Below, piece after piece: positions 43,718 through 62,586 of a stretch of 64,000 nt of DNA; position 1 is the first letter of the stretch, and every line of letters starts with the position of its first letter. The position numbers were made by a program, and so were the translations under genes. The stretch is from a virus: the IMG/VR virus record IMGVR_UViG_3300044960_000439; one strand, written 5' to 3'. A model generated the notes under the pieces. That model did no database searches and was not told the origin of the DNA. It saw only the letters and a program-made list of their open reading frames with translations.

Positions 43718-45379
43718 ACGCCATTCGGCAGAATAGCCGGCCCAACTATTGTCTATAAATATGGGGCGAAAAAACCAACTACAAACGCAGAAGCGATTTT
43801 GGACCAGTTGCGCAAAGCACATCAGTACCGCAACAAGCTTGTCGAAATAGAGCTTCAACGACGCAAACTCGTCGAAGAAGCTGTCAAGAATATCGAAAGT
43901 GATGTCCGCCATTTGACGGACAAGTTAGAACAGCTTGAACTGGACATTGACTATACGGTTAGAAAAATCAGCAACCACAAACAGAAGAATCAGACTCGAA
44001 CTATCCCTGTCGAATTGAAAGAACGTCTCAAATCATTGAAAACTCAGTACAGAGAAGCGCTGCGGCGTATGAAAAAGGCCAAGAAAGCCGCGTACGCTCG
44101 TCCAGAAACGCAGGAGGCATTGAATCGAATTGAAGGAAAAGTGAGGGCTGAACACAAAAAAGCCCGTAATTTGTGTGGGCTCTATTGGGGTACTTACTGC
44201 CACGTAGAGCAGATCATCCCATGTATCAGAAAAGGACCGCCGCCGAAATTCCGCCGTTTCGACGGCAGCGGTGTATTAGCGGTCCAGCTTCAAAAGGGAG
44301 AAAACATTGCACGGTTGGAGAGCGGCGAAGACCGTCGCATCCGCATTGAGGGCTGCGGCAAGCGACGCATATTATGGCTGCGCATCGGATCGGACGAGAA
44401 CCGCGATCCGATCTGGGCGACGATTCCATTTACTTATCATCGTGAAATTCCAAGCGATGCGAAAATCAAGTGGGTGAAAGTCAAAGCCCAACGCATTGCA
44501 TGCCAAACTGAGTGGGAGGTGCTCTTTACGCTGGAACGGAGTTCCGGCTGGAAAAAGCCCGACCTAGCTCAGGATGGAGCAGTTGCCATCGACATCGGTT
44601 GGCGCAATTTCGATGATCGCATTCGCGTAGCATACTGGATTGGTAGTGACGGACGCGAAGGCGAAATTGCACTGCCCCATAACATGGTTGGCAAGGCGCT
44701 TGAACAAGTTGAGCATTTACGATCATTGCGAGACAAGAATTTTAACGAGATTAAGCAGCAACTGCTTGACGCTATCGGTGCGCTCCAGATTCCGGAGTGG
44801 CTAAAGGAGGTTACGAAAACGCTGCATCAGTGGCGTAGTCAAGGAAGACTGGCGGCGCTGGCCATTCGATGGCGGCAACAGCGATTCGATGGTGACAATG
44901 ATATATTTGCTCTACTAGAAACGTGGCGGGTCCGCGACAAGCACCTTTACGAATGGGAGGCACATCTCCGCGTGAAGGCTATTCGTTGCCGCAACGATTA
45001 TTTTGCCAACGTCGTAGCCGATTTGTCTCGTCGTTACAAGACAGCGGTTGTTGAGGATTTTGACTTGCGGAACGTTACACAGGTCGATCCGATACAAACG
45101 GAACAAATTGGCGATGGACGTCAGCTCTATCGTGCACACATCGCCGCGGCCGGTGGCTTACGGCAGATGATTAAGAATCGCTTTGCCGAAACGCAGATCG
45201 TGTCTGCCGTGCTCACAACGCAGACCTGCACGGAGTGCGGCGAAATCATGAACTTCGACGCGGCCGAGAGCGTATTTAGCAAATGTTCACATTGTGGCCA
45301 TGCGTTTGATCAAGACCGCGCAGCGGCGATTAACCTGATGCGACGATACGAGGAAAGGCTAGTTGCTGCGAACAGCTAG
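43718..45379 (+). CDS. cas12m: Type V-U1/V-M (Cas12m-like) TnpB-derived RuvC effector, ~553 aa, apparent ACG start
   Basis: IVYKYGAKKP..LDQLRKAHQYRNKLVEIE, LYWGTY, KFRRFDGSGVLAVQLQ, PIWATIPF..HREIP, RuvC-I VAIDIGWR, QWRS.GRLAAL..RW, RuvC-II VVEDFDLR, Zn finger CTECG..CSHCG, RuvC-III FDQDRAAAINL; CRISPR repeats downstream. Frame is open from 43679; the listed TTG 43799 cuts off conserved residues. Confidence 0.85.
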   Translation, partial: TPFGRIAGPTIVYKYGAKKPTTNAEAILDQLRKAHQYRNKLVEIELQRRKLVEEAVKNIESDVRHLTDKLEQLELDIDYTVRKISNHKQKNQTRTIPVELKERLKSLKTQYREALRRMKKAKKAAYARPETQEALNRIEGKVRAEHKKARNLCGLYWGTYCHVEQIIPCIRKGPPPKFRRFDGSGVLAVQLQKGENIARLESGEDRRIRIEGCGKRRILWLRIGSDENRDPIWATIPFTYHREIPSDAKIKWVKVKAQRIACQTEWEVLFTLERSSGWKKPDLAQDGAVAIDIGWRNFDDRIRVAYWIGSDGREGEIALPHNMVGKALEQVEHLRSLRDKNFNEIKQQLLDAIGALQIPEWLKEVTKTLHQWRSQGRLAALAIRWRQQRFDGDNDIFALLETWRVRDKHLYEWEAHLRVKAIRCRNDYFANVVADLSRRYKTAVVEDFDLRNVTQVDPIQTEQIGDGRQLYRAHIAAAGGLRQMIKNRFAETQIVSAVLTTQTCTECGEIMNFDAAESVFSKCSHCGHAFDQDRAAAINLMRRYEERLVAANS

Positions 45380-52071: not shown

Positions 52072-52144
52072 GGGGTCGTAGCTCAGCGGGTAGAGCATCG
52101 GACTTTTAATCCGAAGGTCATGGGTTCGAGTCCCATCGGCCTCA
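52072..52144 (+). tRNA. tRNA-Lys(UUU)
   Basis: Acceptor GGGGTCG/CGGCCTC; anticodon arm TCGGA-CTTTTAA-TCCGA; GGTTCGAGTCC. Confidence 0.95.
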
Positions 52145-52149
52145 CAGAA

Positions 52150-53388
52150 ATTGCGGCGCGGAAACCCCGGACTTCAGTCCGGGGAGGAAGCGCCGTCTCT
52201 TGATCTGCTCTGCGGTATGTGATACTATACAGTATGCCACAGCGCACCGTTGTATGCAAGATAAATCCAGCCCCGGTGGCGGCTAACGCCCTCAAGGATA
52301 CTGTAGAGAAGTACGCGCTCGCCTGTGATGCTATCCTCGCCGTAACCATCCGTGAGAAGACTTCCAACAAGGTTAAGCTCCATCACGCCTGCTACAGGGA
52401 GATCAGGGAGCGCTTCGGCCTCTCTGCCAACCTGACCGTCCGCGCCATTGCCCGCGTGGCGTGGGCGGTCAAGGCAGCAAGGTGCAAGGGACGAGTCGTC
52501 AAGAAGTTCAAGCCGACGAGCATAGACTATGACGAACGCATCTTCTCCTATCGCGAGAATGAGGAGGTAGTGTCCCTATCTACCACGAATGGACGTGTCC
52601 GCGTCCCCCTTGTACTCGGACAGTACCAGCGAGATGCATTGCGCGGGAAGAAACCCACCGCCGCAAAGCTCGTCTATCGGAACCGTGAATGGTACATCCA
52701 CATCGTCATAGAGTATGATCCGGGCCCGCGGTCCAACCCGAGCTGCGCCATCGGCGTGGATCGAGGTGTCTACAATATCGCTACTACCTCCACAGGGAAG
52801 TTCTATTCCGGACGTAAAGCCACGCACGTGCGCGAGAAGTTCGCGTCGCGGAGAAAGGCTCTCCAGAGCTTGGGCACGAAAGGCGCAAAACGCGCCCTGA
52901 AACGGCTGAGCGGACGGGAGAGCCGGTACATCCGCGACCTGAACCATCGAATCTCGAAGGCCATCGTTGCGGAGGCGGTTCGGAGAAACGCCGTGATCAA
53001 GTTGGAGGACTTGACCGGCATCCGGGATCGCCTCAAGCGGCTCAGCCGCGCTTGGAATCGGAAGGTCAACGCTTGGGCTTTCCGAGCACTGGAGACGATG
53101 ATCCGGTACAAGGCCGAACGTGCTTGGGTCGAAGTCGTTTCGGTTCCTGCTCGTGACACGAGCCGCGAATGTTCCAAGTGCGGAGCCGTGGGCGAAAACT
53201 CTCGAAGCGGGGCACATTTCAGGTGCGCCGTCTGCGGCTATCGTCTGGCCGCCGACTTGAATGCCGCAAGGACGATTTCTGGGAGGCATGCCTGCACAGA
53301 AATGGTCGCCGTCAACCGACCTATGGTGGCGGGGTTGCATTCGTGCACCTCAGCTACAAGCCCCGCACTTTAGTGCGGGGTAGTTGAC
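52150..53388 (+). mobile_element. IS200/IS605-family element, tnpB-only, inserted just 3' of tRNA-Lys
   Basis: LE hairpin CGGCGC..CCCCGGACTTCAGTCCGGGG..GCGCCG; RE CCCCGCACTTTAGTGCGGGGTAGTTGAC; GC-rich; promoter TTGATC-17-TACTAT; left boundary approximate. Confidence 0.87.
52234..53373 (+). CDS. tnpB: TnpB RNA-guided endonuclease
   Basis: RuvC GVDRGVYN / IKLEDL / AADLNAART; Zn finger CSKCG..CAVCG; ATG 52234 lies 5 nt after the -10 box (leaderless). Confidence 0.93.
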   Translation: MPQRTVVCKINPAPVAANALKDTVEKYALACDAILAVTIREKTSNKVKLHHACYREIRERFGLSANLTVRAIARVAWAVKAARCKGRVVKKFKPTSIDYDERIFSYRENEEVVSLSTTNGRVRVPLVLGQYQRDALRGKKPTAAKLVYRNREWYIHIVIEYDPGPRSNPSCAIGVDRGVYNIATTSTGKFYSGRKATHVREKFASRRKALQSLGTKGAKRALKRLSGRESRYIRDLNHRISKAIVAEAVRRNAVIKLEDLTGIRDRLKRLSRAWNRKVNAWAFRALETMIRYKAERAWVEVVSVPARDTSRECSKCGAVGENSRSGAHFRCAVCGYRLAADLNAARTISGRHACTEMVAVNRPMVAGLHSCTSATSPAL

Positions 53389-53401
53389 AGGAGGACTCTC
53401 T

Positions 53402-54409
53402 ATGTTAAATATGGTAGAGTATTATGTGTCGATTTCAGTTGTGAGAGACGTTGTACTACAACTATTTAAGATTATCCTTGCTGAAAAGGATATGGCTAAT
53501 GACAAGGACGGCTTTACTGATTTCACCAAATCAGTAGCCAAAAGTGCCTTGCAGAAATTGCTGCCATATTATGAGCCTGACAGAGAATCAAAGAAATTTG
53601 AAGATAGGATATTGAAAGAAATTTATGACGCAGAAATTAATCTTGATCATGTAAGCTCGTTAGATGAAAAACTAATGAGATTACGTGAAGTACTTAGTGC
53701 TATTTCAGATGAAGATCTTGATAACTTATGTGAAGCAGCAAAGTTGTTTGTTGGTATCTTCTTCTACATTGCTAATCAAGAACCCAATAATATTTTCCTT
53801 TTTGATTCAGTACGAGATAAAGTAAAACGATTAGTAGAAAGTGAATCAGAATATAAATTCCCATTACTAGTAGATATTGGTGATTTGTTCATAGTTAGTT
53901 TAGTTAAAGGTAAGCAATCTGTTCTGAACGATAAAAACATTGCATTATTACTTGACTACAAATTGATAGCATCTAAAGAGAAGCATTACAAATTTATCAT
54001 TCACTACTTGAAAAACGAGCCTGCTTATCTTGATTTTTATCAATTAAAGCAGGTTTATAAAGAAATTGAAGATTGTCTAGATAAATTGAGTGAAAGATTT
54101 GATAGCAAAGCTACTATTAAATGCCTTTGCTATCTGCAGTATGCAAAGACTACTGCAGAAAAACTTGACAAAGAAAAATACGACTCTCTACTTGAGAAGG
54201 TAGAAAAGATCCTGGGGCCACTTGATCCGTACGTTACTATGGCGGTGCTGAGTGATAAATTGCTAGCACCCTTCTTGTTCGTATGCAATGAAGATGTTCT
54301 TATTCCTACTTTCAGGAGAATCAAAAATGAGCAATTAACCTTCACTAACGAATTGCTGGAAAGTAATTTGCGTTCTTTATTTGGAAGTGGCGAGCTACGT
54401 CTTGAGTAG
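53402..54409 (+). CDS. Hypothetical helical protein
   Basis: AGGAGG SD right after the IS right end; ATG 53402. Confidence 0.72.
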   Translation: MLNMVEYYVSISVVRDVVLQLFKIILAEKDMANDKDGFTDFTKSVAKSALQKLLPYYEPDRESKKFEDRILKEIYDAEINLDHVSSLDEKLMRLREVLSAISDEDLDNLCEAAKLFVGIFFYIANQEPNNIFLFDSVRDKVKRLVESESEYKFPLLVDIGDLFIVSLVKGKQSVLNDKNIALLLDYKLIASKEKHYKFIIHYLKNEPAYLDFYQLKQVYKEIEDCLDKLSERFDSKATIKCLCYLQYAKTTAEKLDKEKYDSLLEKVEKILGPLDPYVTMAVLSDKLLAPFLFVCNEDVLIPTFRRIKNEQLTFTNELLESNLRSLFGSGELRLE

Positions 54410-56099: not shown

Positions 56100-56117
56100 G
56101 GCATAAATAAGTGGAAG
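56100..56117 (+). promoter_or_regulatory. Phage promoter-like motif GGCATAAATAAGTGGAAG
   Basis: Identical to 4581; followed by hairpin GGTCTGCA-TTG-TGCAGATC. Confidence 0.7.
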
Positions 56118-56164
56118 GTCTGCATTGTGCAGATCGGAATGTGTCCACTTCCCGAGAGGGACAA

Positions 56165-56575
56165 ATGAGTCACGCTCAAAAGATTTGGCAGTCGCTTTGT
56201 ATGCATCGTGGCAAGGTTGTGATGGTAGTGCTTCTCATGACCACCCTTTTCGCTGCCTTCTACATTTTGAACAGCAATTCCGGCCTTGATAGGAAAGCAC
56301 AGGCAATTGCGGTTCAGTTGTCAAAACGAATTGGTGTACCATACAACGAGGCTTATTTGATTGCCAAGAGTACGTTGAAGGAAGCTGAGAAATTGCCTGA
56401 ACGCGGCAGCTTCTTCGAGAATATTTGGTACGGGTCTCCACGGGCCCGTTATTTGGAAAACACTATTGAGACGAGATTGAGGCGAGCCGGCATGTCCGGA
56501 TTTTGGTTGGGTAGTGAAGTCCGTACTTCGGTTCGCAGCGGCCTCCGTGAGGCCGCCGAGCCGCAGAAGAAGTAG
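56165..56575 (+). CDS. Membrane-anchored hypothetical protein
   Basis: GAGGG SD before ATG 56165; TM segment VVMVVLLMTTLFAAFYIL. Confidence 0.7.
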   Translation: MSHAQKIWQSLCMHRGKVVMVVLLMTTLFAAFYILNSNSGLDRKAQAIAVQLSKRIGVPYNEAYLIAKSTLKEAEKLPERGSFFENIWYGSPRARYLENTIETRLRRAGMSGFWLGSEVRTSVRSGLREAAEPQKK

Positions 56576-56583
56576 TTGTCCTG

Positions 56584-56627
56584 GGGCCTGCTGACCTACT
56601 CAGTAGGCCTCTTTTTTAGCTAAAAAA
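56584..56627 (+). terminator. Hairpin plus perfect palindrome TTTTTTAGCTAAAAAA
   Basis: GGCCTGCTGA/TCAGTAGGCC stem then 56612-56627 palindrome. Confidence 0.7.
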
Positions 56628-56742
56628 TAAATGCACGATATTTAATCTCGTGCACGTATTTATACGTGCGTTTTATTGCTTAGTTTAAGGTGCTTTTTTG
56701 CATTAATTGCACGTTCGTCAATGGACTTAGCTATAGAATTAA

Positions 56743-56760
56743 GGCATAAATAATTGGTGG
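56743..56760 (+). promoter_or_regulatory. Phage promoter-like motif GGCATAAATAATTGGTGG
   Basis: Followed by GGTGGAAA/TTTCCACC hairpin. Confidence 0.7.
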
Positions 56761-56822
56761 AAATTAGTTGTTTTCCACCGGCCATTCCCCGGGCCATTGA
56801 CGGGGAACAGGAAAGCAAGAAT

Positions 56823-57146
56823 ATGACTAGCACTAACAAGGTTGCAGGCTCAAGGATCGTTGTGTTTGAGGCAGAACTTGTGGAAATCTTGAAACAGAAG
56901 TCGCTGGCAGCCGCTGCCGGTTATTTGCATTCGCAAAACCTTCGCTACAACGGTAGCGCCTACCGCTACCGTTGCTTGTCTTCTGGCGATTTGTTCGACT
57001 TGCGCCGGCTGCCCGACGGGCGGCTAGTGCTGCGGAAATTGACTCCGCTCGGTGAGTTCCAGCATCCTCGGGCCGCTGATGCATTCGTGTACTCGGCGCG
57101 TGAAAACGCGCCGAAAGGAAAAGAATACTTCTGGGTCAAGATCTGA
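56823..57146 (+). CDS. GC-rich hypothetical protein
   Basis: ATG 56823 in frame with listed 56754; hairpin AGCGCGGC/GCCGCGCT follows the stop. Confidence 0.65.
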   Translation: MTSTNKVAGSRIVVFEAELVEILKQKSLAAAAGYLHSQNLRYNGSAYRYRCLSSGDLFDLRRLPDGRLVLRKLTPLGEFQHPRAADAFVYSARENAPKGKEYFWVKI

Positions 57147-57228
57147 CCCAGAGAGCGCGGCTTGCCCAAGGCCGCGCTATATAAATGAAAACTTGGGCTT
57201 TCTTTTTTACCTAAAGAGGAGCCCAGAT

Positions 57229-57867
57229 ATGTTACTAGCTCCACAGATATTTGAAGAAGAATTATCTTATCTCAAATGTGTGGATATTTGTTCTGACAAA
57301 TATGTTGTCACTAAATCTGATTTAGTTACGTTTGTTTCTTCTATTGGTGAGATGGAATTATTTGACGTGATTGGTAGGGAAGAATTTGATTCCAATAGAA
57401 TTAAGAAAGAATTAGAGCATGTGGAAGCCACTACAATTGCTGATCTAGTTCTAGATTATTTGAATTATGACTTTGATTCATATTTGCATGAATATGCGAA
57501 AGAACTTGGAAAAGAATTTGATGACTGCGTTGTTACTTGTTCTGAGGAAACAGAATTTGCTGCCTCCGATATTTTAGATACTTGTAACACGCTACTTAGC
57601 GTAGAAGTTGCTATCAAACAATATTTTGATGGTGTAAATAAAGAATTATTTGGATTGTTTTGTGACAAACGTCGTCATTTTGATACCTTACTTCAGATGC
57701 AAGATAATTTGAATGTATTAGCTCGTTATGTAAATTTGAATGAACTTAAAAATTGGCGTAAGCTTTGGAAGCCAAGGGTGAAGATTGATATCCCTTGGTG
57801 GCTTGATGGAACGCTGGAATTTCTGTGCAAGGATGCACAGAGAAAAGTTAAGAAAAAGAGTGAATAA
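57229..57867 (+). CDS. Acidic hypothetical protein
   Basis: GAGGAG SD before ATG 57229, in frame with listed 57052. Confidence 0.7.
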   Translation: MLLAPQIFEEELSYLKCVDICSDKYVVTKSDLVTFVSSIGEMELFDVIGREEFDSNRIKKELEHVEATTIADLVLDYLNYDFDSYLHEYAKELGKEFDDCVVTCSEETEFAASDILDTCNTLLSVEVAIKQYFDGVNKELFGLFCDKRRHFDTLLQMQDNLNVLARYVNLNELKNWRKLWKPRVKIDIPWWLDGTLEFLCKDAQRKVKKKSE

Positions 57868-57878
57868 ATAATTGGGTA
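57861..57878 (+). promoter_or_regulatory. Phage promoter-like motif variant TGAATAAATAATTGGGTA
   Basis: Matches the consensus except the first base; upstream of 57899. Confidence 0.55.
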
Positions 57879-57898
57879 GTTCCACCCAAGGAGGTGCT

Positions 57899-58198
57899 AT
57901 GAAACGCTTTCCAGGTATTTGTTTCGTCTTCATTTTGTTGATCCTGTCTGCTGGTAATTTGACGGTGTACGCTTCGAATAATGAATTGAACCAACCTCTT
58001 GAAAAGCAAGAGGTTATTAATATTTGCAAAGTGCTACTTGATGGGTATATGACTTTTATGATTGAGAAGAATAATTGTGAGCGGCTTGCCGCTGAAGCAC
58101 TTTATAAGCATTTGATCGAGCCTGCTAACGTTCTGTTGAATCATTTGTTTCCAAAGTATGCGAGGAAAATGGAGTACAGATTTGTGCAGGATAAGTGA
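57899..58198 (+). CDS. Small exported protein
   Basis: AAGGAGGT SD; signal peptide MKRFPGICFVFILLILSAG. Confidence 0.7.
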   Translation: MKRFPGICFVFILLILSAGNLTVYASNNELNQPLEKQEVINICKVLLDGYMTFMIEKNNCERLAAEALYKHLIEPANVLLNHLFPKYARKMEYRFVQDK

Positions 58199-58204
58199 AT
58201 TAAT

Positions 58205-58245
58205 AGCCCCAGGAAATTACTCCTGGGGCTTTATTTTAGCTAAAA
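58205..58245 (+). terminator. Hairpin plus TTTTAGCTAAAA
   Basis: AGCCCCAGGA-aattac-TCCTGGGGCT then TTATTTTAGCTAAAA. Confidence 0.75.
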
Positions 58246-58262
58246 CTGTTCAAGGAAGAACT

Positions 58263-58742
58263 ATGATTGATTCTGATTTCGAAATTATAGAACGAAATCT
58301 GAATAGTAGATTTATTTGTCGTAGTTCTTCTGTATATGGAGATTTAGCAAAAGTAATTTCTGTAGAGACTATACATAAATTGCATAACGGAGAACCTGTA
58401 ACTATTTATGTTTGTCTCACCAGATACTTTTATCCTTGCATATTTATCTCTGATTCGAGAAAGGCTAAAGATTATTTATTAGATAAGAAAGCTAAATTAG
58501 AACTGACTATAGAGGAAAATGAATACTTTTCACAACGTGATGTATGCGTTTTTAATTCATTTATCATTTCTCTAAGCCCGCTTCATATGTCAGTTGATGA
58601 TTTGATAGCCCATATTGGAGATATAATCAGCAATATTACTGATTGTATAATTTATGTAATTAATAATAGAACTAAAGATACATTAGACTGGAGACTGGAT
58701 TGTGTAACAAATGGAAAATATGGCATAAATAAGTGGACGTGA
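58263..58742 (+). CDS. Hypothetical protein
   Basis: ATG 58263 after the terminator, in frame with listed 58158. Confidence 0.6.
   Translation: MIDSDFEIIERNLNSRFICRSSSVYGDLAKVISVETIHKLHNGEPVTIYVCLTRYFYPCIFISDSRKAKDYLLDKKAKLELTIEENEYFSQRDVCVFNSFIISLSPLHMSVDDLIAHIGDIISNITDCIIYVINNRTKDTLDWRLDCVTNGKYGINKWT
58722..58739 (+). promoter_or_regulatory. Phage promoter-like motif GGCATAAATAAGTGGACG
   Basis: Immediately upstream of the structured GC-rich block. Confidence 0.65.
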
Positions 58743-59057
58743 GTCCACCCTCCTCCGGGAGGGTTTTAGGTTGGGTGCCAGAAACCCTGTAGCTGCGAGC
58801 ACAGCTACATGGCGGAGGCTAACCGACGTGAGGGAGTCGGGGGTACATGCACAGCCCGGTATTCGACATGCTCGGGTCGAATACAAGGGATGCATGTGCC
58901 ACGGGTTCGAGACCCAAAACCCCTCTTTTTAGACCTGCAGCGAATTGCCCTTTCTAGGGATGTCCCCGCGCTGCAGGTCGTTAACCTATCAAGGGAATCT
59001 CTGCCTTTTTTAGATAAAAAGGTAGGGATTGGGACGTCCCAGCCTGGCCGCTAGGCT
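58740..59057 (+). ncRNA. Candidate ~320-nt structured non-coding RNA of unknown class
   Basis: At least 8 stems, several with G-U pairs (details in findings); GC-rich island with no credible CDS; directly behind a promoter motif. Confidence 0.55.
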
Positions 59058-59076
59058 TTAGTGGCAGGAGCTAGAT

Positions 59077-59769
59077 ATGAAGAACCTAAAAAACATTTGC
59101 ACGCGAGTTGAAGCTCGGGAGTATTTGGAATCGCTTGATTTGCCTGAGTCTGTAATTGAGGCGCTCTTGAAGGAGACCGCACTTGATCGACACAATTGGA
59201 GGACGAGTCGGGCACTTGAAGCAGCGAAAAATTGGGTCGTTAGTTGTTGGGGGATGGAGGAACATAAAATTGGGGAGTATGTTGTGGCGGCGCAGGTTAG
59301 CGCCGTCTTGCTTGCTGATTGCTTTGGTATTGGAGGTCATTTGGGCGTTTCGGGTGCCGGCACTAAAAGACACCCGGCTTTGGTAGGCCTTGGAAAAGGC
59401 CGGAAGAATTGTAGTGATGGTCCAGCTTGGTCGGCGGCAATTCGCGCCGCCGTCGATAATTGTCGTGGATATTTTGCCCCGTCATATATGGATGGTATTT
59501 GCTTGGCTTATTATGTTGATTATTGGAATATGTTGACCCTGCTTAATTCGAAACTTATTCCATTTGAATGGCAATTGACGATTGCCCGTGAGGGGTTGAG
59601 GAGGTCCTTTGGGCTTGATCCTTGGTTCCCGGACTTGTTGGACTTTGTTAGGGCTGACGAGAACACTTGCACGGGTTGGGCTCAATTGGTTGACTACTTG
59701 ACTGAGGAATTGGAAAAAGCAAGGCAACAAGCTGAAGAGGAGCAGCCTGAGGAGGCTGCTTCGACTTAA
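59077..59769 (+). CDS. Hypothetical protein, 230 aa
   Basis: AGGAG SD; ORF track. Confidence 0.72.
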   Translation: MKNLKNICTRVEAREYLESLDLPESVIEALLKETALDRHNWRTSRALEAAKNWVVSCWGMEEHKIGEYVVAAQVSAVLLADCFGIGGHLGVSGAGTKRHPALVGLGKGRKNCSDGPAWSAAIRAAVDNCRGYFAPSYMDGICLAYYVDYWNMLTLLNSKLIPFEWQLTIAREGLRRSFGLDPWFPDLLDFVRADENTCTGWAQLVDYLTEELEKARQQAEEEQPEEAAST

Positions 59770-59836
59770 TTGCTACGTATTATTTGTTTGGCTACTTGTT
59801 TTTTTAGCTCAAATATTTCGGAAAGGAGGGTTATTT

Positions 59837-60907
59837 ATGAAAATCTCTAGCATGCATCTCACTAATGTTGGTCCAATTAAGGATGCTCAAGTTAATTTTG
59901 GCGATTTAACGATATTATTAGGACCTAATGATCTAGGTAAAAGCATTTTTTTACAGCTATTTAGGCTAGCACTTGATTATGGATACATTAATGATGAATT
60001 AACAAAGTATGGAATAGATTGGAATGGTTCTTTATCTCTGTTTCTTGAATCGTATCTAGGAACTGGATTACAGAGCGTTTGGCAAAATGATAGTAGTATT
60101 AAACTAAATGGTAAGCCAATAAATTTGAAGCAAATGGTACAAAAGCCAAGCAAAGCAATAGAACCCACTGTATTTTATATTCCCGCCCAGCGGCTTTTGA
60201 TGTTCACCCACAACTGGATTAAACCTTTCACAGAATTTAGATATATGGATCCGTTTGCCATTAAAGATTTTAGCGAAACGCTCCGTAGGGCAGTAGATCA
60301 TAGAATGATGAAGAAGAGAAATTATTTGAAGCCTTGGCTTTTGAAGGCAATTAGTAAGGATATTTTTGGAAATTTAAATTTAGATATTGCTATATATTCT
60401 TTTAGGAAAAGCATTGTGCTTGGAGATAGTAAGAAGGATACTGTCATTCCTATTGATAATTGCTCTATAGGACAAAGAGCTTTTGTTCCTCTGCTTCTAG
60501 GAATTCAATGGTTATTGCATGAGGCAGCTGATAAGAAAGGTAATTCAATTAAGTGGGTAATTATTGAAGAACCTGAATTAGGTTTACAATTATGCACTCA
60601 TTCTTCTCTCTTTTCTTCTATCTTTCATACATTATTTCTATTGATTACTGGGCTGCTTCAAAAGGGCTATAACGTTTGCATTAGTACACATTCTGAGCAG
60701 GTATTTGCTTTTGCTTGGTTAGCTCGTTACTTGAAGTCTTGCAGCAAATATCCGTCAGGATTGATTACCTGGCTTCAACCAAATAATTCAACGGAATTAG
60801 AGGATTCAGTTAAATATTTATGTAAAAGAAATGTTATGGTCTATGAATTTGACAATAGCGGGCTGGCTGCGGATATTTCACAAGAATATTGTCATAGTAT
60901 GATGTAA
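59837..60907 (+). CDS. ABC-type (AAA_15/AAA_21-like) ATPase
   Basis: N-terminal MKISSMHLTNVGPI, Walker A GPNDLGKS, YIPAQR, signature-like SIGQR, Walker B IIEEPELGL, H-loop STHSE. Confidence 0.82.
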   Translation: MKISSMHLTNVGPIKDAQVNFGDLTILLGPNDLGKSIFLQLFRLALDYGYINDELTKYGIDWNGSLSLFLESYLGTGLQSVWQNDSSIKLNGKPINLKQMVQKPSKAIEPTVFYIPAQRLLMFTHNWIKPFTEFRYMDPFAIKDFSETLRRAVDHRMMKKRNYLKPWLLKAISKDIFGNLNLDIAIYSFRKSIVLGDSKKDTVIPIDNCSIGQRAFVPLLLGIQWLLHEAADKKGNSIKWVIIEEPELGLQLCTHSSLFSSIFHTLFLLITGLLQKGYNVCISTHSEQVFAFAWLARYLKSCSKYPSGLITWLQPNNSTELEDSVKYLCKRNVMVYEFDNSGLAADISQEYCHSMM

Positions 60908-60938
60908 AACTGATTTTTTAGCATGGAGGTTTTGAGAA

Positions 60939-61250
60939 GTGAGCATTTATTTTCCGGTCGGCAAACCTAATATCATTAGATGGTATTCCCCTGACGGGAA
61001 GCACTCGGCGGTGCTACATGTGACGAGCACCACGAATCCGAGGGCTAATGATACCTTGACATTTTACTTCCGGGATTACAATGGTAACCCAGCGACAGCG
61101 CTTGATGGATTAGTTCTATCCTTAGATGGGGTCACCTCTGTCATTGGTACAGAGGTGCGGGCATACGTAGACAGGAATATATTAGCTACTGTATTTAGCC
61201 CTAAGATGACTTTGAAGGTAGGTAATGATATTTGGATTATGAATAAATGA
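60939..61250 (+). CDS. Small hypothetical protein
   Basis: GGAGGT SD, GTG start. Confidence 0.65.
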   Translation: MSIYFPVGKPNIIRWYSPDGKHSAVLHVTSTTNPRANDTLTFYFRDYNGNPATALDGLVLSLDGVTSVIGTEVRAYVDRNILATVFSPKMTLKVGNDIWIMNK

Positions 61251-61543: not shown

Positions 61544-61561
61544 GGAATAAATAATTGGGAG
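61544..61561 (+). promoter_or_regulatory. Phage promoter-like motif GGAATAAATAATTGGGAG
   Basis: Followed by GGCCCC/GGGGCC hairpin. Confidence 0.7.
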
Positions 61562-61611
61562 GCCCCTGCTGTGGGGGCCGATTTGAGTCCACGTACATAA
61601 GGAGCATAAGC

Positions 61612-61797
61612 ATGTACGTGGTTATCTTCTCGTATTCTGAACGGGGGCCGGTGCGGCGGCTCCCGTTCAAGGCTAAGAGCCGGGCTATTCGGGCGGCCCG
61701 GCTCCTTGAGAAGGCAGGCCTTCGGGCTTGCCTCATTAGCCCGTATCCCCTGCGGACTTCCCCGCAGGGGAACAAGGAAATGAAGCCCCGGGTTTGA
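61612..61797 (+). CDS. Small basic GC-rich protein (MYVVIFSY..)
   Basis: AAGGAG SD before ATG 61612; has its own promoter motif and terminator. Confidence 0.65.
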   Translation: MYVVIFSYSERGPVRRLPFKAKSRAIRAARLLEKAGLRACLISPYPLRTSPQGNKEMKPRV

Positions 61798-61974
61798 TCC
61801 TGGGGCGGCTCCTGGGAGGTCGGTCTCTACTCCCAGGAGTAAAAAGCATAGAGACCTTCTTTTTTAGCTAAAAAACAATGATTTTTTAGTTAATAATAAA
61901 AGCTAATTAGTTAGTAACAAAGCTAGTTTTTTTATAAGCAAGCTATAGCTGTATGGGCAAGGTAGGAAGTAGCA

Positions 61975-61992
61975 GGCATAAGTAATTGGAAG
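61975..61992 (+). promoter_or_regulatory. Phage promoter-like motif GGCATAAGTAATTGGAAG
   Basis: Followed by GGCCTCC/GGAGGCC hairpin. Confidence 0.68.
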
Positions 61993-62039
61993 GCCTCCGC
62001 CGTGGAGGCCGAATTCGTTCCGCGTCCGGGAGGGGAAAA

Positions 62040-62252
62040 ATGTACGCGGTGCTAATATACCATACGAAGGGCAGCGACCTGACAGGCCACGAGGTCGAGC
62101 GGGTGAACTTCACCACCCTCTCGGCGGCCGAGGAGGCCGCCGAGAAGGCTCAGCACGAGGGCAAGGATGCCATCGTGCTGCACATCATCCGCCAGCCCTA
62201 CCGATTTACGGTAGGGCCCGACGGGATCATCCGGGACATTGAGTGGTGCTAG
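62040..62252 (+). CDS. Small GC-rich protein (MYAVLIYH..)
   Basis: GGGAGG SD before ATG 62040; terminator 62270-62317 follows. Confidence 0.68.
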   Translation: MYAVLIYHTKGSDLTGHEVERVNFTTLSAAEEAAEKAQHEGKDAIVLHIIRQPYRFTVGPDGIIRDIEWC

Positions 62253-62269
62253 CCGCTCGGTGTCCCACT

Positions 62270-62317
62270 AGCCCCAGCCGCGCCAGGACGGCGTTGCTGG
62301 GGCTTTCTTTTTTAGCA
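62270..62317 (+). terminator. Terminator hairpin with TTTTTTAGC tail
   Basis: AGCCCCAGC..GCTGGGGCT then TTCTTTTTTAGCA. Confidence 0.75.
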
Positions 62318-62586
62318 CTAATCCCCTTACTTCTTTTTTAGCTAAAGAAAACAATATTTGCTTTTTAATTCATTACATTAACAACTGTTGTCATTATATA
62401 GCATACTTCCTTTCTTTATCGCTCTTTCATTTATAGCTACCTCTCGCTCATTCTCTCTCTATCTTTACTGCTTTTATTCTATACTCGCATTCTATTAAAG
62501 GTAAGTAATAGTAACACATAATCGCCTATTGTATTATTGTTAATGTATATAGAGATGTATATTTATATTGTCTATGGATTATTCAA

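Follow-up and report, generated by a model that had tools for sequence, protein, structure and literature searches.

The lysine riboswitch, which like T-box leaders is a large leader aptamer, is built around a five-way junction and has kissing loops between P2 and P3. Retron msr-msd RNAs, the IS110 bridge RNA, the IscB omega RNA (HEARO) and the non-coding RNAs (ncRNAs) of DRT2 and DRT9 are encoded in the 5′ untranslated region (5′ UTR) of their partner gene, and put RNAs consist of two stem-loops, ~70 nt in total. Large, complex RNAs that belong to no family are rare, and have historically proved to be ribozymes, riboswitches or the cores of ribonucleoprotein (RNP) complexes. The element described here lies on the + strand at positions 58733–59076 of a phage-like contig (IMG/VR record IMGVR_UViG_3300044960_000439; the whole stretch of 64,000 nucleotides is referred to as the window). 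It spans ~345 nt from its presumed start to the start codon of a gene for a protein of 230 amino acids (aa); a preliminary description, made from the letters alone, had put its length at ~320 nt.

The element is very probably a real, structured, non-coding and unclassified RNA of the + strand. Its helices are kept by compensatory and G-U-preserving substitutions on that strand, and it lies outside every family of Rfam 15 and is neither a tRNA nor a tmRNA. RNAalifold, applied to nine sequences, gives ten local helices; the stems picked out in the preliminary description are all present where it had placed them, with one correction of detail (the 15-bp stem, here hairpin 8, has two G-U pairs where three had been counted). 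The promoter-like motif, the parts of the RNA and the translation start that follows it are listed below.

58722–58736, + strand: phage promoter-like motif GGCATAAATAAGTGG, the last bases of which are the 5′ strand of hairpin 1
58733–58748, + strand: hairpin 1, a 6-bp stem with a GNRA tetraloop (GUGA, GCAA or GUAA)
58747–58764, + strand: hairpin 2, G+C-rich, with stem 58747–53/58758–64 and a 4-nt loop
58771–58926, + strand: domain 1, a multi-helix junction of ~155 nt in five parts
58772–76/58919–23, + strand: candidate closing helix of domain 1
58777–58819, + strand: arm A, with, in order from its base, 3 bp of GCC/GGC, a G-A-rich internal loop (58780–84/58813–16), an 11-bp helix and a loop
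58823–58840, + strand: hairpin 4, a 5-bp stem (58823–27/58836–40) with the 8-nt loop GUGAGGGA
58842–58900, + strand: arm B, with helices of 10, 3 and 9 bp and two small internal loops between them (outer helix 58842–51/58891–900, inner helix 58859–67/58876–84)
58903–58915, + strand: T-loop-like hairpin GGG-UUCGAGA-CCC, invariant, with a 3-bp stem
58916–58931, + strand: C-rich 3′ strand AAAACCCCUCU, followed by a U-run and AG
58932–58979, + strand: hairpin 7, an 11-bp stem (58932–42/58969–79) with a small inner hairpin and a variable loop
58996–59030, + strand: hairpin 8, a stem of 14–15 bp (58996–59010/59016–30)
59031–59040, + strand: hairpin 9, 3 bp, GGGACGUCCC in the window and GGGACAUCCC in relatives
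59047–59065, + strand: hairpin 10, GCCGCUA/UAGUGGC (59047–53/59059–65), which ends one base before the Shine-Dalgarno sequence
59066–59070 and 59077–59079, + strand: Shine-Dalgarno sequence AGGAG and ATG of the 230-aa gene

The same element occupies the same place in all contigs of a close group of homologues, which comprises L001, L007–L010 and L012–L016, reached through relatives of the 230-aa protein, and L011, the sole contig to come from a pattern scan of metagenome DNA, in which the RNA is identical to that of L001. There are seven full-length distinct copies and two partial ones. Eight sequences beyond that of the window, drawn from 10 contigs of hot-spring and microbial-mat metagenomes, conserve the element. 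The copies are 83–93% identical, and the hot-spring phages that carry them are close relatives within a single narrow clade. Variation is found in the stems, whereas junction strands and loops are invariant. In arm A (58787–58810) four to five pairs are changed on both sides in L008 and L013, including a G-C to C-G transversion, and five pairs carry double changes overall; in the basal helix of arm B (58842–51/58891–900) five pairs are changed in L015 and L012, with G-U intermediates in L001 and L007. A hand-written structure of domain 1 was tested on one alignment (A6) against shuffles and against slid partners. Pairing is kept in 97.7% of the cells, and double changes occur at 10 pairs versus 4.4 ± 1.4 in shuffles, none of 500 of which reaches 10 (the shuffle control not being a probability); with the partners slid by 1–3 columns, 0–1 double-change pairs are found. 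Three double-change pairs in the 3′ half, a number reached in 7 of 500 shuffles, give weaker support: hairpin 8 has two together with several G-U switches, and hairpin 10 has one (A-U to G-C, in L001) together with two G-U switches. Over all pairs there are 54 G-U cells versus 5 A-C cells, which indicates that the + strand is the folded strand. The preliminary description had held that helices kept intact by G-U pairs point to selection at the RNA level and had proposed a covariation check on homologues; the idea is borne out by these substitutions. An all-against-all search of column pairs for pseudoknots returned hundreds of spurious pairs, which trace back to singletons in L001 and L008.

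Beside a divergence hot spot, the RNA has stayed constant. Domain 1 is its most conserved part, the core of the RNA (58800–58899) having 94–98% identity to L001, L008 and L009, and the motif at 58722 is invariant in all seven relatives that reach it. Among relatives with the same backbone, the upstream gene is 90–98% identical to the window and an ATPase gene on the other side is 88–100% identical, save for one 100-nt bin at 71% (L009). The 230-aa gene, compared with L001, L008 and L009, has a nucleotide identity of only 68–83%, with one 100-nt bin at 91% (L008).

The sequence from 58722 to 59076 (355 nt) has a predicted minimum free energy (MFE) of −167.6 kcal/mol versus −126.1 ± 5.2 for dinucleotide shuffles (z −8.0), and its reverse strand folds less strongly (z −6.1). 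The G+C content of the element is 56% versus 38% for the genome, and in a G+C-regressed MFE scan of the whole window 58751–58900 ranks ninth (residual z −2.8), so that folding energy alone would not single the element out; conservation and compensation do. The main arms of domain 1 are kept in the fold predicted in silico at 65–75 °C.

Translation does not account for the conservation. The preliminary description had named the open reading frame (ORF) at 58809–59054 (81 aa) as a competing explanation. L008 and L013 have ACG in place of its ATG, and in L007 the ATG is displaced; the full-length leaders contain six sites of indels whose length is not divisible by three, which shift the frame, and substitutions are distributed over the three codon positions without bias (14/19/19). 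A search with this ORF among 5.8 billion proteins recovered only itself and one 55-aa fragment.

The earlier impression that no known RNA core is matched also held. The families of Rfam 15 include RNase P, SRP, 6S, tmRNA, group I/II introns, riboswitches, HEARO and GOLLD/ROOL, and at gathering thresholds their only matches in the whole window are four tRNAs elsewhere; in sensitive mode (E up to 10, 58300–59500) the element itself is matched only once, by chance, to a miRNA-like hairpin (20 bits versus a threshold of 88), and no family is matched at E up to 10 at the seven homologous loci either. ARAGORN at default settings finds no tRNA or tmRNA in the element. Two structures that it drew at relaxed settings were rejected: a ‘tRNA-Arg with an 81-nt intron’, drawn only at an 80% threshold, the intron of which removes the covarying arm A, and a ‘permuted tmRNA’ of 498 nt that extends into the next gene, with a tag that passes the ribosome-binding site and takes in the first codons of the 230-aa gene. 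With regard to retrons and DRT systems, Pfam, PADLOC and NCBIfam scans of the five genes at 56111–61250 contain no reverse transcriptase, and the same scans show no recombinase or RuvC/HNH nuclease in the neighbouring genes; the sole NCBIfam match is a sub-threshold P-loop match of the ATPase to the retron Eco8 effector (25.6 bits versus a cut-off of 250). There is no HEARO match in the Rfam searches, and the element does not have the setting of a TnpB or IscB omega RNA, which ends in a guide and overlaps or adjoins the 3′ end (TnpB) or 5′ end (IscB) of its nuclease gene: the TnpB-like genes (43799–45379 and 52219–53373) are >5 kb away and their ends share no sequence with it. The tandem direct repeats of ~34–36 nt that stand upstream of the toxin gene in type III toxin-antitoxin systems (RNA antitoxin, ToxI-like) are not seen, Tandem Repeats Finder giving only a 7-nt, two-copy repeat at 58685–99, outside the RNA. 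As a separate observation, within 52072–53373 a TnpB-like gene with OrfB_IS605 and a Cas12f1-like TNB domain has 57% G+C and starts 74 nt after tRNA-Lys, and the strongly folding stretch 53351–53500 at its 3′ end could be its omega RNA.

Within domain 1, the apical loops of arm A (CGAGCA, 58796–58801) and arm B (AUGCUCGG, 58868–75, including UGCUCG at 58869–74) are invariant, and 58796–801 is the exact 6-nt Watson-Crick complement of 58869–74. Both loops are unchanged in the alignment although the stem of arm A beneath has turned over, and the chance of such a complement is ~0.01 by the author's own arithmetic (38 registers among loops of at least 6 bases, times 4^-6). Such a match suggests that the loops may kiss and so lock the two long arms together, an arrangement known from several riboswitch aptamers. 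At the flank of the internal loop of arm A, 58784/58813 changes from A-C to G-U in L008; the basal 3 bp and the G-A pairs, the bases of which are invariant, are predicted pairings, and the structure of hairpin 4, with its invariant stem, is likewise proposed from complementarity only. The T-loop-like hairpin is identical at 15 of 17 bases to the T arm of the phage tRNA-Lys. At least four G-rich segments are candidate partners of the C-rich strand at 58919–25, namely 58772–76, the 3′ strand of hairpin 2, GAGGG in the loop of hairpin 4 and AAGGG at 58990–94; because all of them are invariant or nearly so, the alignment does not fix its pairing. The long-range alternative that had been suggested between GAGGGTTTT and AAAACCCCTC is not kept in L007, L009, L013 and L016.

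Hairpin 1, the loop of which contains the stop codon of the upstream 194-aa gene, belongs to the generic type of 5′-terminal hairpin found in the transcription units of the phage. Hairpin 2 survives indels, with a 7-bp stem in the window and 4–6 bp in relatives, and the U-run 3′ of it is not conserved. In the 3′ half, the 11-bp stem of hairpin 7 is invariant in all nine sequences, and hairpin 8 has in its loop a copy of the putative terminator-tail motif of the phage, TTTTTTAGATAAA (59006–18). Hairpin 10 and the AGCCT/AGGCT pairing at 59041–45/59053–57 are mutually exclusive. The latter, which had been reported beside the Shine-Dalgarno sequence, is present, but it competes with GCCGCUA/UAGUGGC, the stem that carries the one double change (L001); the changes in L001 fit both, and covariation does not discriminate between them. 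No canonical intrinsic terminator lies between the RNA and the 230-aa gene.

The motif at 58722 and the loop of hairpin 8 are both copies of sequences that recur in the window, and their sites, with the two genes downstream, are as follows.

4581, 41729, 56100, 56743, 58722, 61544 and 61975, + strand: sites of GRMATAARTAWNTGG
11031, 55588 (− strand), 56612, 57203, 58232, 59006, 59800, 61446, 61860 and 62334: sites of TTTTTTAGMTAAA
59077–59769, + strand: 230-aa gene, downstream of the leader, with an Arg-rich product
59837–60907: ATPase gene (AAA_15/AAA_21), with its own ribosome-binding site, after a terminator-tail motif

The pattern GRMATAARTAWNTGG has seven matches in the window, all on the + strand, versus 0.02 expected, which upholds the phage promoter motif of the preliminary description as an enriched, putative promoter. 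Each copy precedes a gene and is directly followed by a hairpin whose 5′ strand starts in TGG, and the pattern is probably the phage's own promoter type with a stabilising hairpin at the 5′ terminus. The short units of the 3′ quarter have GGCATAAATAA(G/T)TGG and then the hairpin, and many end in a TTTTTTAGCTAAA-like tail; in other units of the same phage that have this motif, leaders are only ~25–75 nt. The second motif, TTTTTTAGMTAAA, has 13 matches (at most one mismatch) versus 1.15 expected and is often self-complementary; most copies come after genes and G+C hairpins, and it is therefore probably a terminator tail. In L007, L013 and L016 the promoter, RNA and gene stand directly after a terminator motif in a different upstream context, which implies that they travel as an autonomous unit. 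The gene upstream of the RNA has no conserved terminator of its own.

Two observations concern other parts of this region. At 61544–62350 there are two more units with the promoter motif, of 60–65% G+C and with very strong predicted folding (residual z to −4.4), which appear to encode short G+C-rich ORFs from 61613 and 62041. The strongest G+C-corrected folding in the window (residual z −4.6) is at 58201–58350, where a hairpin (58205–30) and a terminator tail lie within the first codons of the called 194-aa ORF, and the true start of that gene may therefore be further downstream.

The 230-aa protein has no match in Pfam, PHROGs, PADLOC or NCBIfam. Its structural model is confident (predicted local distance difference test score, pLDDT, 91), and structure searches with it gave nothing convincing: the best E-values were 1.5 in PDB (Foldseek) and 0.55 in AFDB clusters, the best Z in a wide VIA-align search was 4.0, and template-modelling (TM) scores in the ESM Atlas were 0.32 or less, which does not amount to proof of a new fold. 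Arg, Lys, His and Gly make up most of the protein's invariant residues, and the gene could be an arms-race (anti-defence or exclusion) gene. Relatives in metagenomes fall at 74–94%, ~50% and ~35% identity. The ~50% homologues (in L002 and L004) are on G+C-rich phage contigs, one of which comes from the metagenome of L010, L012 and L014, and in them (L002 2501–3675 and L004 2492–3648) the place of the RNA is taken by a conserved gene of 165–168 aa, tightly coupled to the homologue (2-nt gap), that belongs to no family and has no counterpart in the window. The ~35% homologues stand among helix-turn-helix (HTH), HNH and YqaJ genes, with upstream gaps of 54–85 nt. A scan of species genomes with the 230-aa family found only one Saccharimonas metagenome-assembled genome (MAG) and one deltaproteobacterial MAG, both distant. 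A covariance model of the RNA (R1) detects no diverged copy in the window and none in the loci of the distant homologues; together with the absence of the RNA from those loci, this indicates that the gene was imported and that its leader has gained the RNA in this lineage specifically. The ATPase encoded after the 230-aa gene has a full-length match (7.9e-88) to PDC-M56A, a candidate defence family of PADLOC, and no partner ‘B’ protein was recognised among the neighbours. It is thus, as an observation in its own right, a phage-borne copy of a candidate defence gene.

The window is A+T-rich (32–40% G+C), with nearly all long ORFs on the + strand, and contains four tRNA genes, MoxR-like ATPase/VWA pairs, a Cas12m-like gene and a TnpB-like gene. 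Its 3′ quarter is a mosaic of short transcription units, and elsewhere in the phage tRNAs act as punctuation between gene modules. No second copy of the element and no terminal repeats are found in the window. blastn with 58000–61000 gave no match among 50,697 GenBank phages, and of four exact or gapped patterns used to scan IMG/VR three had no match and the fourth had a chance match only (L021, rejected since it lies inside a coding region of a high-G+C phage). The literature on PDC-M56 and comparable phage RNAs yielded nothing relevant. Public runs that contain this stretch are hot-spring and microbial-mat metagenomes; none of the listed runs is recorded as RNA, and 0 reads fell on 57900–60300 in three raw metatranscriptome runs whose study also includes a DNA run with a relative, results that say nothing about expression either way.

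The RNA is tentatively read, at a little below an even chance, as a cis-acting sensor or regulatory leader of the 230-aa gene, between whose ribosome-binding site and the recurring promoter-like motif (58722) it is placed. Transcription would start from the 58722 promoter, and the RNA would form the 5′ leader of the 230-aa gene and act in cis. Domain 1 would be the sensor or binding module, for a protein, a small molecule, a tRNA-like partner or temperature, held by the 6-bp kissing contact of arms A and B and by the T-loop-like hairpin. The four 3′ hairpins would make up an expression platform, consisting of the invariant 11-bp hairpin, the hairpin with the terminator-tail loop and the two exclusive hairpins that end at the Shine-Dalgarno sequence, and this platform would control the extent to which the fast-evolving gene is transcribed or translated. 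Several points weigh against such a leader. The ~50% and ~35% homologues are without the RNA, so the protein family does not need it as such; the consensus fold shows no visible sequestration of the Shine-Dalgarno sequence; and at 345 nt and about ten helices the element is bigger than most cis-regulators and more like a ribozyme or an RNP scaffold. The long-range and junction pairings are all between invariant bases, and covariation discriminates none of them. Furthermore, the sample is nine close relatives, in which the background of single-pair covariation is high, and the argument therefore rests on runs of in-register changes.

The main rival, rather unlikely on present evidence, is that domain 1 or the whole leader acts in trans, as a stable ncRNA or as the RNA component of an RNP. 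Termination or processing near 58926–31 or 59006–30 would set it free, and it would be partnered by a protein such as the Arg-rich 230-aa product or the PDC-M56A-like ATPase, or serve as a decoy for a host factor. Size and complexity fit this better than they fit a cis-acting leader, given the junction, the candidate kissing loops, the T-loop-like hairpin and the many invariant single-stranded bases; behind domain 1 and within hairpin 8 there are tails of a U-run and AG that resemble the terminator tail of the phage, but neither 58926–31 nor 59006–30 has the usual terminator of a hairpin plus U-run. The many invariant Arg, Lys and His residues of the 230-aa protein also speak for this reading, yet the ~50% and ~35% homologues keep the same invariant residues without the RNA. 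The locus has the look of a conflict locus, with its defence-family ATPase and the divergence hot spot of the 230-aa gene; the ATPase gene, however, comes after a terminator-tail motif and has its own ribosome-binding site. A further and improbable reading makes the element self-processing or a processing signal, in the form of a small ribozyme or of a tRNA-like punctuation mark at which RNase P or RNase Z cuts, perhaps left behind by a mobile element; it would separate the upstream transcript from the 230-aa mRNA. The near-identity of the T-loop-like hairpin to the tRNA-Lys T arm favours this reading, as do the acceptor/T-arm frame that relaxed ARAGORN draws at 58758–58926, the use of tRNAs as punctuation elsewhere in the phage, the contrast in G+C (suggestive of import) and the upstream gene's want of a conserved terminator. 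That relaxed model, however, treats the covarying arm A as an intron and the default search is negative; the T stem has 3 bp and not 5, and three unpaired A residues separate it from any acceptor-like strand. Nor is any ribozyme, intron or tRNA-clan family of Rfam matched at E up to 10, and neither a second copy nor terminal repeats mark a mobile element in the window.

A DNA-level element, whether palindromes bound by a protein or single-stranded hairpins (an origin, packaging site, operator or IS200/IS605-type end), is very improbable. The 11-bp arms 58932–42/58969–79 are absolutely invariant, as for sequence-specific recognition, and each contains a CTGCAG palindrome; the phage has TnpB-like genes, and G-T wobbles are also tolerated in single-stranded DNA. 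Double-stranded sites, however, do not select strand-specific G-U compensation of the kind seen in the excess of G-U over A-C cells, and ten nested helices with in-register double changes are unexpected for operators. The element stands exactly between the promoter motif and the ribosome-binding site, and it adjoins neither TnpB-like gene and shares no sequence with their ends. That a small protein, from ORF 58809–59054 or another short frame, is what has been conserved is scarcely credible: a frame of ~90 codons is open in five of the seven full-length relatives, yet the start is lost or moved, indels break the frame, codon positions show no bias, the protein search returned little beyond the ORF itself, and the changes in the helices are compensatory.

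It is a bolder and doubtful proposition, given less credence than the trans-acting RNA, that domain 1 would be the founding example of a new compact class of phage RNA (a ribozyme, a ligand- or tRNA-sensing aptamer or an RNP scaffold) that controls or assists a rapidly diversifying conflict gene in thermophilic phages, with a fold, kissing arms and a T-loop at a five-helix junction, that has no described relative. A new class of system is not yet established by the evidence. Of the novel phage RNA class put forward in the preliminary description, the unclassified RNA stands and the class is not shown, as all copies are in one narrow clade and the distant homologues are without the leader; the switch in its alternative, a large switchable 5′ leader, stays conjectural. 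This narrow distribution limits the claim for now, and the element is a good candidate for experimental follow-up. Since the source is a thermophilic phage, its helices should be unusually stable, which is convenient for structural work. The locus, with a hypervariable orphan-fold gene and a candidate defence ATPase, is of the kind where new mechanisms of phage-host conflict emerge: should the RNA prove to be a sensor leader, it would offer an uncommon case in which an accessory gene is under a riboregulator specific to phages, and should it prove to be an RNP partner, it would give an orphan protein family a function.

Compared with the described systems, the element resembles the put RNA of phage HK022 and other antitermination RNAs close to promoters in being promoter-proximal, cis-encoded and structured and in belonging to a phage unit with terminator-like signals, and differs from put RNAs in being five times larger and without sequence resemblance. 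With tRNAs, the tRNA-like domain of tmRNA and the Y-RNA-like YrlA of bacteria and phages it shares a canonical T-loop (UUCGAGA) and GG in a neighbouring hairpin loop, and its C-rich and G-rich strands could close an acceptor-like helix. Unlike these, it is negative in ARAGORN and for the tRNA clan of Rfam, its T stem is 3 bp long, there is no CCA or discriminator context, and two long covarying arms stand where tRNA-like folds have none; no Ro/Rsr (TROVE) gene was seen among the proteins scanned.

The retron, IS110, IscB and DRT ncRNAs are, like this element, heavily structured RNAs of 150–350 nt from a mobile or conflict locus, each lying immediately 5′ of a protein gene and reading in the same direction. 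Here, in contrast, none of the neighbouring genes encodes a reverse transcriptase, recombinase or RuvC/HNH nuclease, no Rfam model of the HEARO or retron type matches, and the candidate partner family is mostly without such an RNA. From riboswitches and other leaders the element differs in the absence of any Rfam match at E up to 10, of a recognised ligand and of an evident terminator/antiterminator pair, in a downstream gene that has no metabolic annotation and in its occurrence in one phage clade only. With the lysine riboswitch and T-box leaders it has in common a position in the 5′ UTR between promoter and ribosome-binding site and a junction of several helices with invariant joining strands, as well as two long arms with complementary apical loops, followed by downstream hairpins that may serve as an expression platform.

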